A stretch of DNA of 64,000 nucleotides from Escherichia coli (lineage in GTDB: Bacteria; Pseudomonadota; Gammaproteobacteria; Enterobacterales; Enterobacteriaceae): assembly GCF_041886205.1 (NCBI RefSeq), contig NZ_CP169030.1; one strand, written 5' to 3'. This document shows, one piece after another, positions 11,301-54,206 of the stretch. A program made the position numbers and the translations under genes. Below the pieces are notes generated by a model. The model was not told where the DNA came from. It did no database searches and saw nothing but the letters and a program-made list of their open reading frames with translations. Position 1 is the stretch's first letter; each line of letters starts with the position of its first letter.

Positions 11301-13648
11301 CTGACGGAATGCCCGGGCGTTTCCACCCAGCCGTTCTCCAGCTTCAGTGCCGTGAACGGTGAATCGCTCACAGGCAGGGTGGCCGGTTCAGCCCGTCCCG
11401 GCACAACAACCGTCATCGTGTCCTCACTGACGGACGACACCTGCAGGCGGTCACCGCCGGAGACGCGGAGTCCGGGAATTTTCCCTGTCACCCTCAGACG
11501 CTCGCCGTCTGCCACCGGCATTTTTTCCGGCCGGAACAGCGACCAGCTGCTGTCCAGAGAAGAAATACGCACCACCTGCGTTTCGCCCTGCGCATCCCGC
11601 AGGGTCAGGCTGTGACTCTGCGCCGTCACCCGGTCTATCACATAGCGGTCATGACTGCGTGTCTCCGGGTTCCACTGCTCCATCACCATCCCCGGGCGGT
11701 ACATATCCCGCAGATAACGACTCCGGCTGTCCAGCCAGACCGGTGACAGCGCGGTCATGGTCACCTCCGGATGTCCGAGTACGCCCTGTGTTTTCAGCTC
11801 ACTGCGAATGGTCTGAGTCAGCATGGCCTGTTCCCGTACTCCACTGACCTGCGCCACGCTCTCTTCTCCGGCTTTCACGCTGACCGCAAAATCTCCGGCC
11901 AGCCGGGCATAGCGGACATTACGGTCCGGTTCACTGATGATGGTTGCCGGTCGCTGTTCTCCCCCCTGCCAGCGATATGTGTTCACTCCGGCATCCTTCA
12001 TGGCCATCAGCGCACTGCCGGTACCGGTCCGCTGCCCGCTGTCGATTATCAGGACCTGTACGTTATGCCGTGCGGCACCGTCCAGCAGAGTTAACGTCTC
12101 TTTCAGGGAGAGTTTTTCGCCCTGGTCGACGATAACGGTACTGCCCGGCGTGAAGGTCATGCCCTCCAGCAGCTGACGCCGCCCGGTTATCAGCTCACCG
12201 GACAGACGCTCATCCTGCTTCATGTTCATCTGCGAGCGACGGTCAGCAGCGATAATCTGCACCTCCCGCCCCTGCTCCCGGGCCATCATGACCAGTTCAG
12301 CCACCCGCTCACGCTGCCCGGCTGCACCGCCCTGCCCGGACACAATGGCCAGCGACGGGCGATCCTGTGCCAGCACGCTGACGGCATCGCTGTAACCGGC
12401 CGTCCGGGGAACACTTTTCTCCGGATGTACGGTCACCCGGTTCTGTTTCATGATGTCACGACTGAGTGCCCGGACTGACAGCTCATCGAGCACATGAATC
12501 CCGGACGTGAACAGCCCCTTCTCACGGTCGAGGGGGATAAGCTGCTCACGGCTGATGGCCTCATCGATACCGGCGCGTGCCCGTTCAATCACACCATTTT
12601 CCGGCGGCAGTATGCCGACCGTTCTGGCCAGTACGTCCGTGTACGTGAACTGCACTTTTCGTTCACTTAATCCGGCAATCGCCTGTGTCACCGCCTGCTG
12701 CACATCCGGCCCGTCCTGTGAAGCAGGCCCGGGCGTCAGCGTGCGGAGATCCGCACGCTGATCCGCCGCGTCACGATATGCCCGGATGTCGAACCCGGTT
12801 TCCTTCAGCGTCTGCATCCACTCGGCCATTTTGATCTCCGGATCGACATGCTGTTTGGATTTACGCGTATCCAGCGCCGCCACATCCCGGGATTTCAGCG
12901 AGGCGTCTTCCCCGACGGCCTCCCGGATAGTCTGTGAGCGTCCGGAAAAGGCCTCCACCGGTACACCCGGCATTTCCCACATACCGTGCTTACCAACCAC
13001 TTCAGTTTCATAGCCCAGCGCCTCAACCTGCTCTTTCAGTTTTTCCCGGTAGAGCCTGCCAAAGGCAATCTGATTAGCGTACACATTCTCAATGAACCCC
13101 GTTTTCCCCACTTTGTCACTGCTCAGTGTCTTCCATTCGCCATTATGCTGCGTGACATTAGCCACCACCGCATGCGTGTGTAACTGTGGTTCCTGATCGC
13201 GACTGGTGTCGTGGTTAAACAGTGCCATCACCAGATTACCGGTCAGCACCGTTTCTGACTGTCCGTCCGTCATCACCCGTGTGGAGGCCAGCGCCTCCAC
13301 CTGACGGACAGCAAAATCCACGGCCTGATTATGTGCATCAATCAGGCGCTTATCGCCACCTAACATGGCCATCATGGAGACACTTTTGGGGGCGGAGAAG
13401 GTCAGATCGTAGCCGGGACGATGCCTGTTACTGCCATCCTGCATGCGGCTTAGATCCGCTCCGTCCGGCAGCCTGCCCTCCAGAAGACGGGTAAAAACAT
13501 CCTTATCGACACTGCCCTGCAGCCCCAGCTGTTCAGCCCCCCTGCCGGCCCAGCGTTCTCCCATGCTGCCCAGCACATAGTAATTATCCTTGTCGGTATA
13601 ATAGTTCCCGGCACTTCCGGCCGATCTGACCTGCGCAATACTCATCAT
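8378..13648 (-). CDS. traI: TraI relaxase / DNA helicase I
   Basis: 1756 aa; N-terminus MMSIAQVRSAGSAGNYYTDKDNYY of F TraI; Walker A GYAGVGKT. Confidence 0.97.
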   Translation of the reverse strand: MMSIAQVRSAGSAGNYYTDKDNYYVLGSMGERWAGRGAEQLGLQGSVDKDVFTRLLEGRLPDGADLSRMQDGSNRHRPGYDLTFSAPKSVSMMAMLGGDKRLIDAHNQAVDFAVRQVEALASTRVMTDGQSETVLTGNLVMALFNHDTSRDQEPQLHTHAVVANVTQHNGEWKTLSSDKVGKTGFIENVYANQIAFGRLYREKLKEQVEALGYETEVVGKHGMWEMPGVPVEAFSGRSQTIREAVGEDASLKSRDVAALDTRKSKQHVDPEIKMAEWMQTLKETGFDIRAYRDAADQRADLRTLTPGPASQDGPDVQQAVTQAIAGLSERKVQFTYTDVLARTVGILPPENGVIERARAGIDEAISREQLIPLDREKGLFTSGIHVLDELSVRALSRDIMKQNRVTVHPEKSVPRTAGYSDAVSVLAQDRPSLAIVSGQGGAAGQRERVAELVMMAREQGREVQIIAADRRSQMNMKQDERLSGELITGRRQLLEGMTFTPGSTVIVDQGEKLSLKETLTLLDGAARHNVQVLIIDSGQRTGTGSALMAMKDAGVNTYRWQGGEQRPATIISEPDRNVRYARLAGDFAVSVKAGEESVAQVSGVREQAMLTQTIRSELKTQGVLGHPEVTMTALSPVWLDSRSRYLRDMYRPGMVMEQWNPETRSHDRYVIDRVTAQSHSLTLRDAQGETQVVRISSLDSSWSLFRPEKMPVADGERLRVTGKIPGLRVSGGDRLQVSSVSEDTMTVVVPGRAEPATLPVSDSPFTALKLENGWVETPGHSVSDSATVFASVTQMAMDNATLNGLARSGRDVRLYSSLDETRTAEKLARHPSFTVVSEQIKTRAGETSLETAISHQKSALHTPAQQAIHLALPVVESKKLAFSMVDLLTEAKSFAAEGTGFTELGGEINAQIKRGDLLYVDVAKGYGTGLLVSRASYEAEKSILRHILEGKEAVMPLMERVPGELMEKLTSGQRAATRMILETSDRFTVVQGYAGVGKTTQFRAVMSAVNMLPESERPRVVGLGPTHRAVGEMRSAGVDAQTLASFLHDTQLQQRSGETPDFSNTLFLLDESSMVGNTDMARAYALIAAGGGRAVASGDTDQLQAIAPGQPFRLQQTRSAADVAIMKEIVRQTPELREAVYSLINRDVERALSGLESVKPSQVPRQEGAWAPEHSVTEFSHSQEAKLAEAQQKAMLKGEAFPDVPMTLYEAIVRDYTGRTPEAREQTLIVTHLNEDRRVLNSMIHDVREKAGELGKEQVMVSVLNTANIRDGELRRLSTWETHRDALVLVDNVYHRIAGISKDDGLITLQDAEGNTRLISPREAVAEGVTLYTPDTIRVGTGDRMRFTKSDRERGYVANSVWTVTAVSGDSVTLSGGQQTRVIRPAKERAEQHIDLAYAITAHGAQGASETFAIALEGTEGSRKLMAGFESAYVALSRMKQHVQVYTDNRQGWTDAISKAVQKGTAHDVLEPGADREVMNAQRLFSTARELRDVAAGRAVLRQAGLAGGDSPARFIAPGRKYPQPYVALPAFDRNGKSAGIWLNPLTTDDGNGLRGFSGEGRVKGSGDAQFVALQGSRNGESLLADNMQDGVRIARDNPDSGVVVRIAGEGRPWNPGAITGGRVWGDIPDNSVRPGAGNGEPVTAEVLAQRQAEEAIRRETERRADEIVRKMAENKPDLPDGKTEQAVREIAGQERDRAAITEREAALPEGVLREPQRVREAVREIARENLLQERLQQMERDMVRDLQKEKTLGGD

Positions 13649-13729
13649 AAACGTATATCCCTTTGACATATCCCGGCATCAATCCCACAATGGATATACA
13701 CAAGACATATCCACATAAGGAGGCAAATA

Positions 13730-13957
13730 ATGGAAACCACCGTATTTCTCAGCAACCGCAGCCAGGCGGTCAGACTGCCAAAAGCGGTTGCATTGCCGGA
13801 AAACGTAAAACGCGTTGAAGTGATTGCTGTCGGACGAACCCGAATCATTACGCCTGCCGGAGAGACATGGGACGAATGGTTCGACGGAAACAGTGTCAGC
13901 GCTGATTTTATGGATAACAGGGAACAGCCTGGTATGCAGGAAAGGGAGTCATTCTGA
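13730..13957 (+). CDS. vagC: VagC / VapB antitoxin (AbrB/SpoVT-type)
   Basis: 75 aa; 1-nt overlap with downstream PIN toxin gene. Confidence 0.85.
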   Translation: METTVFLSNRSQAVRLPKAVALPENVKRVEVIAVGRTRIITPAGETWDEWFDGNSVSADFMDNREQPGMQERESF

Positions 13958-14355
13958 TGCTGAAGTTTATGCTCGATACCAACATCTGCATTTTTACGAT
14001 AAAGAACAAACCCGCCAGTGTCAGGGAACGTTTTAACCTGAACCAGGGGAGAATGTGCATCAGTTCGGTCACTCTGATGGAGGTGATATATGGTGCAGAA
14101 AAAAGCCAGATGCCTGAACGTAATCTCGCTGTGATCGAGGGATTTGTTTCCCGCATTGACGTTCTGGATTACGACGCTGCTGCTGCCACACACACCGGCC
14201 AGATAAGAGCAGAACTTGCCCTTCAGGGACGCCCTGTCGGGCCATTTGATCAAATGATCGCAGGTCATGCCCGCAGTCGGGGACTGATTATTGTGACTAA
14301 TAACACCCGGGAATTTGAACGTGTGGGCGGCCTGAGAATTGAAGACTGGAGTTGA
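13957..14355 (+). CDS. vagD: VagD / VapC PIN-domain toxin
   Basis: 132 aa, N-terminal MLKFMLDTNICI PIN motif, matches recalled VagD. Confidence 0.88.
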   Translation: MLKFMLDTNICIFTIKNKPASVRERFNLNQGRMCISSVTLMEVIYGAEKSQMPERNLAVIEGFVSRIDVLDYDAAAATHTGQIRAELALQGRPVGPFDQMIAGHARSRGLIIVTNNTREFERVGGLRIEDWS

Positions 14356-14363
14356 CCTGTTCA

Positions 14364-16517
14364 TCAGAAATCATCTCCCGGCTCAACATCCTCCCCGCGC
14401 TCCCGGTGCACATTAATGTTCACCTCTTCACGACGCTGCATCTGCTGCTGGATGTCCGGATGATTTTCCTGTTGCCATGCCTCATAAGCGGCCATATCCA
14501 CCACTTCACCGGATTCACTGATCCCGGGTGGCAGTTGCTGTTCCATCTCTTCTTCCGGTTTCATTTTCAGCTCCTGCTCGATCCCCCCTGCCGGAACATT
14601 CACACCTGAATCTGACTTCTTATCGTTGATGGCAGGAGACACCGGCTGTTGCGGCTGTTCAGCCTGAGTCACGTCTTCTCCGGAAACAACCTCCGGGACA
14701 TCCGGTTCGAAGAGGCTGGCCATCTGACGACCTTCTGCTTCCCTTGCGGCAAGTACGGCACTCAGACGGTTCTCCATTTCCGGGTTGATGTCACGCGGAA
14801 TAAACTCCGGAGCGACCTTCGGTCGTGTCTGATATTTCAGAGAGAGTTTTACTGCCGGATACGGTCCGGGCAGGGTGACATAACAGGTCAGATCCGGCAG
14901 AGACTGAATGTCGGAATAACTGACCAGCGTCTGGCGCTCCATATCCTTACCGGTCGATACCCCGTCACGTACCGGATCAGCACCGTAGGAATACTGCTCG
15001 CTGGCTTTCAGGTGCTCTTTCTCACCAATTTCACCGGCAGCGAACTCTGCAATCTTATGGCTGGGAGAACGGAAAAAGGCACGGGTGTTCATGACGTCAA
15101 ACAGCGAGGCAGCCGCTTTCTCACCGTAGATATCTTCCAGCTGGGCATAGGACTGGATACCAAACACATAACAGCCACCGAACTTACGGGCTTCCGGCAG
15201 GATCTCCACCAGGTCCGGCAGTTTGTGTAACGTGGGTAACTCATCACAGAAAAACCACACACGACGGTTACGGTTTTCTCCCATTGCCAGCAGACCACGA
15301 ATGGCAATGGACAGCCACATGGAGATCACCGGCTTCAGGGAGGCATGGGTGTCGGCATTCGACGAAATAAACAGCCAGCCGTTTTTCTGATCTTCCCGGA
15401 CACCACGCATCCAGTCACGGATGGTAAAAGGCTCACCGTTATGCTCAATCCCCTGCAGGTAACGGATGGCTTTCACGTAGTTGGTCAGCACAGCACGGAT
15501 GGAAATCGCCGTTTTCTCAATTTTCTCTTCCACCAGGTTGGCCGCCGGTGAATTACGCAGGTAGGTACGCAGTTTTTCAATTTTGATGGAAAGCAGTGTG
15601 TCCACCAGTTTGCTGTAGCTGCGGTTGGGGTCATTACGCATCAGATACGCCGCTTCCGCAAAAATGGTACGTCCTGAACCCTGCCAGAACGGGTCCTCTT
15701 TTGTACCCATCGGGATCAGAGTATTTGCGGTATTATCAAAATCCGGCTGTGTCAGGCACTCCTTCCACAAATCCCAGGCGGCACAGCGGGCATCCAGCGG
15801 ATTCAGGATTTTATCGATGGAGGGATCATAGTAACTTTTAACAAATTCCCCCGAACGGTCATAAATCACCACCATATCACCGCGCTGACGGGCGTAGTTG
15901 GCCAGACGACGGATAACTTCCGACTTACCGGCCCCGACCGTGCCGTGCAGACAGAAGTTCTGGATTTCGGAATCCCGGATAATCGGCAGGTCTCCAATCC
16001 GGATATCGGAGTCCTTGCCGTCTTTTTTCAGCATCCGGGCAACGTCTTTCGGATTGTCTGTCAGCTGACGACCACCTGTGACTTCATTTTCGCTCTGTTG
16101 TTTACCCTGACGCCCCAGAATCCAGGAGACAACAAAGAAGGTAATCAGGCAAATAACCAGTGCCACAACAGCAGCCAGCACGAAGGCGGACCATAACTGC
16201 TCACTGCACCAGATCATATATTTGTCATGCAGTACCTGAGCAGCGTTCATGCGGAAGGTTTTACCGTAATACTGGATCTCATAGACCGGCTGGGATTTGA
16301 TTAAATCCCGCATGCCTTCCAGCGTGGTACACCACCAGTAAATACAGCCGTTCACAAACGTCTGCCAGCTTATTTTTATCCATAAAACCAGACCAACGAG
16401 TATCCAGAAAAAAATAAACAGGCAGTAAAGCATGATATTGGCGATCTGGCTGAACATGCGGATACGCATGGACGCAATCTGACCGCCCTGGGTCATATCC
16501 TTTGCGTTAAAACTCAT
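14364..16517 (-). CDS. traD: TraD type IV coupling protein
   Basis: 717 aa, Walker [11 protein letters not shown]-rich C-terminal tail ending GDDF as in F TraD. Confidence 0.96.
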
Positions 16518-42289: not shown

Positions 42290-42309
42290 GTTTCATTCTC
42301 CTGTGTCTG

Positions 42310-43030
42310 ATGTTTTCAGCCCCCATCATCTGTTGAGTTTCGGGAGCCGCGGTTTTGACGTTTTGCGGGGACCTGCTCTTTGCTCCCTCCGGTATTCACC
42401 ATCACCTGTTTGAGAACCTTCGCCGCATGGGGCATCACTGCCACGGCCGGAAACGACTGTCCGGGGGCAGACCGCAAAAGTTTTTGCCTGCTTTTGGGCA
42501 AAAAGTTTTGCGGGATGTGCATTTCACCCCTGGACTGGCGGAGACGGTTGTGGCTGTCTATGCCCCCGGCGACAGGGGCTTAAACAGGTGAATCGCACCG
42601 GACAGAACAACGGGCAGGGACCCGCCGCAACGACGTGAAGCGCGGTTTGCGAAACGGCGTTGCTCCTTACATCCCGGCGTCTTTTTGCCGGGATGCCGGG
42701 AGCGCAGGTCACGGCGCGACAAGGGTGGCGCGACCGTTCCGGTCGCTGAAAACCCGGGTTTTTGCGTCAGGGATGGAAGCCGCCAGGGCGGAGACAGCTC
42801 CGCTGGCTCCGTTCACGACAGCCCGCCCCGCCAGGGGGACGCCCGGAAAAGGCACTGCCAGGAGAACAACAAAACAGAGAGTAATCAGAGCAGCAGAAAA
42901 AAGAAGAACAGTAGCAGGAACCGCAACATCATCAGTAACAGACAAATGACAGGTCTGAAAAGACAGAAGCCCACAGCAGAACGTCCGCGTAATGAAAGGG
43001 GCGGCGCGTCAGCGCGGCCTTTTTTACCAG
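42310..43030 (-). repeat. Leading-region structured repeat copy A (candidate ssDNA promoter, Frpo/ssi-like)
   Basis: One of four direct copies; extensive dyad symmetry; abuts RBS of 41993-42289. Confidence 0.6.
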
Positions 43031-44814: not shown

Positions 44815-45420
44815 CTCTGGTTTTCAGCCCCCATCATCTTTTGAGTTTCGGGAGCCGCGGTTTTGACGTTTTGCGGGGACCTGCCTTTTGTTCCCTCCGG
44901 TATTAACCATCACCTTTTTGAGAACCTTCGCCGCAAGGGGCATCACTGCCACGGCCTGACGCACCTGTCCTGGGCAGAACGCAAAATTTTTTACCGGGTT
45001 CTGGGTAAAAAATTTTGTGGGCTGTTCATTTACCCTGGACAGTCAGTGCGGCAGGTTGTGGCTGTATCAGCCCCCGGCGACAGGGGCTTAAACAGGTGTA
45101 TGGCACCGGACACAACAACGGGCAGGGACCCGCCGCAACGACGTGAAGCGCGGTTTGCGAAACGGCGTTGCCCCTTACATCCCGGCGGCCTTTTGCCGGG
45201 ATGCCGGGAGCGCAGGCCACGGCGCGACAGAGGCGGCGCGACCGGAACGGTCGCTGCAAGCCCGGGGTTTCGCGTCAGGGATGGAAGCCCGCCAGGGCGG
45301 AGACAGCTCCGCTGGCTCCGTTCACGACAGCCCGCCCCGCCAGGGGGACGCCCGGAAAAGGCATAAGCAGGAGAACAACAAAACAGACAATAATCAGGGC
45401 AGCAGTAATCAGAGTCAGAA
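44815..45420 (-). repeat. Leading-region structured repeat copy B
   Basis: Direct copy of repeats A/C/D. Confidence 0.6.
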
Positions 45421-45697: not shown

Positions 45698-45856
45698 CTA
45701 CTTACCGGATTCGTAAGCCATGAAAGCCGCCACCTCCCTGTATCCGTCTCTGTAACGAATCTCGCACAGCGATTTTCGTGTCAGATAAGTGAATATCAAC
45801 AGTGTGAGACACACGATCAACACACACCAGACAAGAGAGCTGCGTGGTAGTTTCAT
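45698..45856 (-). CDS. hok: Hok-family toxin (flmA/hok) with overlapping mok-like ORF to 45997
   Basis: 52 aa [52 protein letters not shown]; hairpin terminator 45668-45690. Confidence 0.9.
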
Positions 45857-50204: not shown

Positions 50205-50930
50205 GATGTTTTCAGCCCCCATCATCTGTTGAGTTTCGGGAGCCGCGGTTTTGACGTTTTGCGGGAACCTGCTGCTGTATTCCCTGTGGTATGAACTTCA
50301 CCCGTTTGAGAACCTTCGCCGCAAGGGGCATCACTGCCACGGCCTGACGCCCCTGTCCTGGGCAGAACGCAAAATTTTTTACCGGGTTCTGGGTAAAAAA
50401 TTTTGTGGGCTGTTCATTTACCCTGGACAGTCAGTGCGGCAGGTTGTGGCTGTATCAGCCCCCGGCGACAGGGGCTTAAACAGGTGAATGGCACCGGACA
50501 CAACAACGGGCAGGGACCCGCCGCAACGACGTGAAGCGCGGTTTGCGAAACGGCGTTGCGCCTCACATCCCGGCGGCCTTTTGCCGGGATGCCAGGAGCG
50601 CAGGCCACGGCGCGACAGAGGCGGCGCGACCGGAACGGTCGCTGCAAGCCAGGGTTTCGCGTCAGGGATGGAAGCCCGCCAGGGCGGAGACAGCTTCGCT
50701 GGCTCCGTTCACGACAGCCCGCCCCGCCAGGGGGACGCCCGGAAAAGGCATAAGCAGGAGAACAACAAAACAGACAGTAATCAGAGCAGCAGAAAAAAGA
50801 AGAACAGGAGCAGTAGCAGGAACAACATCATCAGTAACAGACAAATGACAGGTCTGAAAAGACAGAAGCCCACAGCAGAATGTCCACGTAATGTAAGGGG
50901 CGGCGCGTCAGCGCGGCCCCTTTCACGCCA
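50205..50930 (-). repeat. Leading-region structured repeat copy C (immediately upstream of ssb)
   Basis: Direct copy; abuts ssb RBS. Confidence 0.6.
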
Positions 50931-53245: not shown

Positions 53246-53479
53246 AATTTAGCCTCTTATGACGTTAATTAATGAAACCGTAAAGACTGTTCGTGCAGTC
53301 TCTGCGGTGTGGATTAAGCAGGTCCCTGACCTGCTTTTTTCATATCTGCATCTGACGCTTTCCGGTGTTTTCCTCCTTCTGTTCCTGCGTTCTCATTACC
53401 TGCCAGCCGGATGACTGACAGAACAAATAAATGCGTATTGCCGGAGCCTGAAATAAATCCTGATTTTTAAAGAACATCA

Positions 53480-54010
53480 CCCGTTGAGTTTCGGGAGCCG
53501 CGGTTTTGACGTTTCGCGGGAACCTGCTGCTGTATTCCCTGTGGTATGAACTTCACCCGTTTGAGAACCTTCGCCGCAAGGGGCATCACTGCCACGGCCT
53601 GACGCACCTGTCCTGGGCAGAACGCAAAATTTTTTACCGGGTTTTGGGTAAAAAATTTTGTGGGCTGTTCATTTACCCTGGACAGTCAGTGCGGCAGGTT
53701 GTGGCTGTATCAGCCCCCGGCGACAGGGACTCATACGGGTGTGTGGCACCCGGCAGGCAATGAGCAGGGACCCGCTGCAACGACGTGAAGCGCGGTTTGC
53801 GAAACGGCGTTGCTCCTTACATCCCGGCGGCCTTTTGCCGGGATGCCAGGAGCGCAGGCCACGGCGCGACAAGGGCGGCGCGACCGTTCCGGTCGCTGCA
53901 AGCCGGGGGTTTTGCGTCAGGGATGAAAGCCCGCCAGGGCGGAGACAGCTCCGCTGGCTCCGTTCACGACAGCCCGCCCCGCCAGGGGGACGCCCGGGAA
54001 AGCCATAAAC
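53480..54010 (-). repeat. Leading-region structured repeat copy D
   Basis: Direct copy (left end diverged). Confidence 0.6.
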
Positions 54011-54206
54011 AGGAGAGGAACGGAAAGAAGAGGAAGAAGAACAGTAACCACAGAAACATAACATCAGGAAAAAACATTCCGGACACATCACAAACGGGAA
54101 GGGAAGCGGGCGACGCGCCAGCGTGGCCCGCTTCCCTTCCGGCAGGCGCCAGCCTGCCAGGGGTTTTCGCGCGGGCTGACAGGCGGCCTCCACCGCCTGC
54201 CCTGTA

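Follow-up and report, generated by a model that had tools for sequence, protein, structure and literature searches.

The vapBC module on the strand opposite traD and traI is that of the F plasmid, and the opposing reading frame trbH may be a translational bridge

What does a toxin–antitoxin module do inside a conjugation operon, between the genes for the coupling protein and the relaxase and on the strand opposite to both? The question is raised by a 64,000-nucleotide stretch of Escherichia coli DNA (contig NZ_CP169030.1; hereafter the window), in which two small genes separate traD from traI. Taken as a whole, the locus is, with high probability, best explained as the VapBC module of the F plasmid lying antisense in the tra operon, to which we add a putative bridge formed by the reading frame trbH.

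The relaxase/helicase gene traI (8378–13648, minus strand; RefSeq start MMSIAQ) follows the module downstream in the tra operon, and the coupling protein gene traD (14364–16517, minus strand; stop codon 14364–14366) precedes it upstream. Alignment with empty traD/traI junctions defines a cassette of 716 bp (13649–14364). Comparison of empty and filled junctions also reveals a TCAT duplication (13645–13648 and 14361–14364) that bounds the cassette. An earlier sequence-only reading had given the same length and an extent of 13649–14363, which is right within 1 nt. It had also placed a vapBC module here on the strand opposite to tra, and the open reading frames, Pfam, and NCBIfam all agree with this. 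The same reading had called the module convergent with or antisense to the tra operon. The orientation is indeed antisense, but the module is convergent only with traD and divergent from traI.

On the plus strand, vapB (vagC/mvpA, 13730–13957; assigned from the ORF listing, the sequence, Pfam, and NCBIfam) encodes an AbrB/SpoVT-type antitoxin of 75 amino acids, preceded by a Shine–Dalgarno motif read off the sequence (AAGGAGG, 13717–13723, plus strand), 6 nt upstream of the ATG. It is followed by vapC (vagD/mvpT, 13957–14355, plus strand; assigned from the ORF listing, Pfam, and NCBIfam), which encodes a PIN-domain toxin of 132 amino acids from the tRNA(fMet)-specific endonuclease family. The vapB stop and the vapC start share 1 nt in the sequence TGATG (13955–13959), and the small antitoxin gene thus lies directly upstream of the toxin gene, in one operon, with overlapping stop and start codons. 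VapB matches the Pfam MazE/AbrB-type family (MazE_antitoxin; 2e-5, 24.9 bits, cutoff 24.7) and NCBIfam NF040493 (112 bits, cutoff 60). VapC matches Pfam PIN (6.3e-21, 75.6 bits, cutoff 23.6), NCBIfam PRK13725 “tRNA(fMet)-specific endonuclease VapC” (286.9 bits, cutoff 143), and the VapCLeptosp equivalog (168.2 bits, cutoff 140). The acidic active-site residues D7, E42, D98, and E119, counted on the translation, are all present. Judged by its sequence, the locus is a VapBC (VagCD, MvpAT) type II toxin–antitoxin system of the enteric tRNA(fMet)-specific VapC subgroup, and no observation speaks against this identity.

The sequence-only reading had assumed that F has traD next to traI. This premise is wrong, because the reference F plasmid (NC_002483.1) carries the cassette at 100% identity. 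Positions 13300–14800 of the window (1.5 kb, module with flanks) are identical to NC_002483.1 in every nucleotide, both proteins included, and the RefSeq annotation of that record lists traI, vapB, a VapC-family toxin, and traD in this order. The locus therefore does not differ from F VapBC at all. The VapC sequence is 100% identical to chain A of PDB code 9h6a, and the VapB sequence is 100% identical to residues 22–96 of chain B; this entry (series 9h6a–9h6d) is the structure of the F-plasmid VapBC hetero-octamer (PMC11796401).

What the module does has been worked out on proteins identical or nearly identical to these, those of F and of Shigella pINV. Initiator tRNA(fMet) is the target of VapC, a PIN endoribonuclease; VapB binds VapC and masks its active site, and as a VapB4VapC4 hetero-octamer the two proteins act via two operators to repress the vapBC promoter (PMC11796401 and work cited there). 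In plasmid-free cells, degradation of VapB by Lon frees VapC and growth stops, which constitutes post-segregational killing (PMC11796401). F VapBC has been studied for antibiotic tolerance as well as for plasmid maintenance, and mutations in vapB of chromosomally integrated F lead to tolerance of antibiotics (beta-lactams) (PMC11796401). The position of the module between traD and traI was noted in 2015 (PMC4285173). Since F VapBC has been crystallized, its mechanism studied, and its location put into print, the module is, as its sequence identifies it, real but already known, and as first stated it adds nothing new to a crystallized system with known roles in maintenance and tolerance.

The closest described systems are found on other enteric plasmids. 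VapBC/MvpAT of Shigella pINV (PDB codes 3tnd and 6sd6) belongs to the same family and shares the layout, with a VapC that is 97% identical, and VapBC2 of Salmonella pSLT, with a VapC that is 95% identical, occupies the same position between traD and traI. A role in plasmid maintenance is documented for both (PMC11796401, PMC5065971); vapBC2 stabilizes pSLT, where its position is given as “encoded within the trbH gene” (PMC5065971). Whereas the tra genes of pINV are degraded, the F-type copy in the window lies within an apparently intact tra operon. In pINV, this degradation leaves the cassette with maintenance as its only role. In Shigella flexneri pINV (L009, 1611–3380), vapBC is flanked by a remnant of the traI 5′ end (97% amino acid identity) and a remnant of the traD 3′ end (94%), with an IS3 transposase beyond the latter. 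What Shigella keeps as a maintenance module is thus the remainder of an F-like traD–vapBC–traI region.

Outside the cassette and its flanks, the window is that of an F relative. We rejected the possibility that it is F itself, as the 100% identity is local to the cassette and its flanks. From traI to traT the window is 99.4% identical to F, with all 44 mismatches from position 11419 onward, whereas the leading and maintenance region (40000–64000) is 90–97% identical to F (L090). The two levels of identity point to a mosaic F-like backbone. Neither PLSDB nor the complete E. coli RefSeq genomes held a closer relative for the leading and maintenance region, the best matches reaching ∼94.5–94.7%. 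This region also contains a dispersed repeat of ∼550–600 bp in four copies (42297–42896, 44820–45374, 50208–50810, and 53475–54040; 85–96% identity), which in F is found at 58.0–58.6 kb and 63.4–64.0 kb, adjoining ssb and hok. VapBC had been counted as a third addiction system, and within the window this is correct: there are two Hok-family toxin ORFs besides vapBC, both on the minus strand (45701–45823 and 5352–5474). One of them matches, at 100% identity, the core of the Hok-family toxin that is annotated near psiB in F; the other, 39% identical, is probably srnB. No ccdAB homologue is present anywhere in the 64-kb window.

How common is the cassette at this site? The traD/traI flanks have matches in 4223 plasmids; in 1155 of these, at least 80% of the 1.5-kb query is covered, and the cassette (at least 80% covered) is present in 1269 PLSDB records; ∼27–30% of F-like plasmids carry it at this site. 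In the remaining ∼70%, the traD stop overlaps the traI start by 1 nt (TGATG). Comparison with other F-like junctions thus bears out the supposed adjacency of traD and traI for the plasmids that lack the cassette, but not for F. Plasmids with and without the cassette are alike typed as conjugative. In an Enterobacter-type F-like backbone, the junction is empty in a plasmid of the Enterobacter cloacae complex (H181, NZ_LT991959.1) and filled in L013 and H171, so that more than one backbone lineage is polymorphic for the cassette.

In about 22 plasmids (for example, L006 2442–3215 and L092 743–1516), a 77%-identical cassette occupies a second tra junction, which has a DUF2726 gene on one side and traD on the other. 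Its orientation is again antisense, and empty versions of this site exist as well. It seems that vapBC enters the distal tra operon repeatedly and in the same orientation. At the second-site position of a Citrobacter sp. TSA-1 plasmid (L091, 774–1430 and 1602–2101), vapB and vapC are fused, truncated, and decaying, and they adjoin a yefM–yoeB toxin–antitoxin pair. The region upstream of traD therefore looks like a hot spot for toxin–antitoxin systems.

The predicted signals for vapBC expression crowd against the start of traI. The predicted vapBC promoter (13663–13691, plus strand), a good sigma-70-like site, consists of TTGACA (13663–13668), a 17-nt spacer, and CACAAT (13686–13691); its hexamers match in 10 of 12 positions, and it points away from traI, whose start codon is 15 nt away. 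Operator-like repeats with ATATCC/GGATAT half-sites extend over 13653–13713. One pair is formed by GTATATCCCTT (13653–13663) and AATGGATATAC (13689–13699), the other by TGGATAT (13691–13697) and ATATCCA (13707–13713). The repeats cover both the −35 and the −10 hexamers, plus the ribosome-binding region of traI on the opposite strand. At the near-identical promoter of pINV, the VapBC complex binds two operator sites that overlap −10 and −35 (PMC11796401). At the other end of the cassette, the stop codons of vapC and traD are 8 nt apart. This leaves no space for a terminator between the two genes, and the sense and antisense transcripts must therefore overlap. A scan for a vapBC terminator gave only weak candidates within the coding sequence, none of them convincing, and an Rfam scan of 13000–15000 returned no RNA family (one sub-threshold snoRNA match, E = 0.19).

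On the tra strand, antisense to vapBC, an ORF of 239 codons spans the cassette (13645–14364, minus strand). It is the historic trbH of F, long listed as a tra-region gene without an assigned function. The ATG of trbH overlaps the stop codon of traD (TGATG), and its TGA overlaps the ATGATG of traI, so that the frame fills the gap exactly; it also runs in exact codon register with vapC. A Pfam search of the ORF found no domain. Stop/start overlaps of the type TGATG or ATGA are a general principle of translational coupling in operons. Empty plasmids show such a junction, with the TGA of traD over the ATG of traI, and trbH reproduces the overlaps at both of its ends. Unlike at ordinary coupled junctions, coupling across the cassette would be relayed via an ORF of 239–272 codons lying opposite two real genes and a promoter. 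To our knowledge, and within a literature search that was not exhaustive, relayed coupling through an antisense ORF has no described precedent.

We compared cassettes from a scan with F VapC (one genome per species, 80 loci), taken together with plasmid loci. The traD/traI junction is the site of six of them, namely those of F, pSLT, pINV, Edwardsiella, an Enterobacter MAG, and Pantoea, with VapC identities of 73–97% and nucleotide identities down to 69%. In all six, the antisense frame in vapC register contains no stop codon, and in all a bridging ORF of 239–272 codons starts with an ATG that overlaps the traD stop and ends with a stop that overlaps the traI ATG (besides the window, L005 646–1365, L007 2461–3279, L013 2656–3408, and L015 2492–3244). 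Across five lineages, the overlap with traD reads TGATG or TAATG, and that with traI reads TGATG or ATGATG. The non-coding flanks of the cassette vary in length (82–118 nt and 9–78 nt) and yet are open and in phase. Among homologous cassettes elsewhere, the frame is open in 1 of 74, the GC-rich non-tra cassette L019 (GC 0.63). The difference between the junction and other sites is significant (Fisher p = 2e-8; 3.5e-6 if four lineages are counted).

The open frame has a visible counterpart in the codons of vapC. Because TTA, CTA, and TCA read as stops on the other strand, an open antisense frame requires a vapC that lacks them. In the vapC genes of tra-context cassettes, they are 0 of 108 Leu/Ser codons; non-tra homologues with a similar GC content have 39 of 289. 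A codon-usage bias of the plasmids was considered as the cause of their absence and rejected, since traI and traD use them at 7.1% and the second-site cassettes on plasmids contain them. When vapBC of F alone is recoded synonymously, the frame stays open in between 20% of trials (weighted by codon usage) and 80% (permutation within genes); an open frame in F alone is therefore not significant, and comparative tests were used. In a conservative, phylogeny-aware test, confined to the coding part, in which only codons that changed between lineages were redrawn, the joint P was 3e-4 under family codon usage and 0.02 under tra-gene usage, the most lenient null.

The encoded protein behaves differently from the frame. 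Between lineages, amino acid identity in the TrbH frame is 49–54%, versus 73–85% for VapC from the same DNA. The fraction of synonymous differences in vapC is 0.53–0.57 in tra context versus 0.51–0.59 in non-tra cassettes of the same protein identity and is thus not depressed. By identity, by synonymous change in vapC, and by Pfam, TrbH gives no sign of purifying selection at the protein level. The TrbH protein drifts and synonymous change in vapC is unconstrained in amount, so only the openness of the frame is conserved. In this analysis, the historic trbH appears as a vapBC passenger of which only openness and phase are kept. The second-site cassette, in which the flanking genes do not overlap and which effectively represents one lineage, has six stops in the same frame and no bridging ORF.

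The Edwardsiella anguillarum plasmid (L007) has a traD that appears to be split into two overlapping ORFs (3854–5482 and 3279–3908; locus 3279–5482), and this traD is probably a frameshifted pseudogene. The 272-codon bridge ORF downstream of it is intact.

From these comparisons, we lean, by a modest degree, toward trbH being a bridge frame under selection: its openness and phase would be kept, it would have no function as a protein, and it would not be an artefact of annotation. As far as we could find in the literature, this idea for trbH is new. Insertion of the cassette would have split an overlapping, translationally coupled junction of traD stop and traI start (TGATG). Ribosomes that finish traD could then restart on the ATG of trbH, cross the antisense of vapC, of vapB, and of the vapBC promoter, and terminate on the ATG of traI, where they would re-initiate. 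In this way traI would stay translationally coupled to traD through trbH. Translation of the bridge would also keep the tra mRNA covered by ribosomes over 716 nt that would otherwise be untranslated, and so may guard against premature termination. Conservation of such a bridge suggests selection to neutralize interference of vapBC with traI, not to exploit it. The comparison behind this covers only three to five independent lineages, and the tra-context cassettes may share a single insertion. In 1993, Maneewannakul and Ippen-Ihler reportedly saw no impairment of F transfer upon insertion of a kan cassette in trbH; this would argue against a strict need for the bridge, unless the kan promoter drove traI.

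An unselected origin of the frame is the reading that competes most directly with the bridge. The antisense frame could be a passive by-product of the residues and codon habits of vapBC, inherited from one insertion; we regard this as unlikely, although with a chance that has to be taken seriously. The ease with which recoded F vapBC keeps the frame open fits it, as do the joint P of the most lenient null, which does not vanish, and the open frame of the GC-rich L019 outside tra. It accounts poorly for the concentration of open frames at the traD/traI junction, and for the lack of TTA, CTA, and TCA where synonymous sites are near saturation, 0.53–0.57 of the codons for the same amino acid being different. 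Nor does it lead one to expect that flanks of variable length stay open and in phase, or that every lineage keeps its stop/start overlaps with both traD and traI. That TrbH is instead a genuine Tra protein, forming a true overlapping gene pair with vapBC, is very improbable. Its length class, start, and stop are kept across lineages, it bears a historic tra-region name, and it served as a query in a comparative study (PMC5102898). Against a functional protein stand the missing Pfam domain, the divergence of TrbH relative to VapC, and the undepressed synonymous change in vapC, which is non-synonymous change in trbH. TrbH was also found in only 8% of MOBF12 plasmids (PMC5102898), and the ∼70% of F-like plasmids without it are still typed as conjugative.

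The sequence-only reading had seen in the cassette an unusual insertion relative to F, whose antisense transcription might modulate traD–traI read-through and thereby regulate conjugation. The geometry lends this some appeal: transcription from the predicted vapBC promoter would meet that of the tra operon head-on, the ribosome-binding region of traI is overlapped by the −35 hexamer and by an operator half-site, and the narrow space between the vapC and traD stops forces the transcripts to overlap. In addition, a 2025 preprint on Shigella names an antisense transcript, “as-trbH”, to which it assigns no role (bioRxiv 10.1101/2025.06.29.662172). Nevertheless, the cassette is no insertion relative to F, which has the same one, conjugative typing is indifferent to its presence, and a conserved bridging ORF would suggest that selection neutralizes effects on traI. 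We therefore hold a regulatory role of this kind to be improbable, if less so than a functional TrbH protein.

Annotators should bear in mind that trbH and vapBC occupy one and the same stretch of DNA. If the bridge reading of trbH is true, it would offer a testable answer to the thirty-year-old puzzle of why F carries trbH, a frame for which neither a product nor a phenotype is known. A reading frame would then be under selection solely to let ribosomes cross an inserted antisense cassette, which is unusual, and the codon choice of vapBC would then be constrained in conjugative plasmids, with no TTA, CTA, or TCA in vapC.
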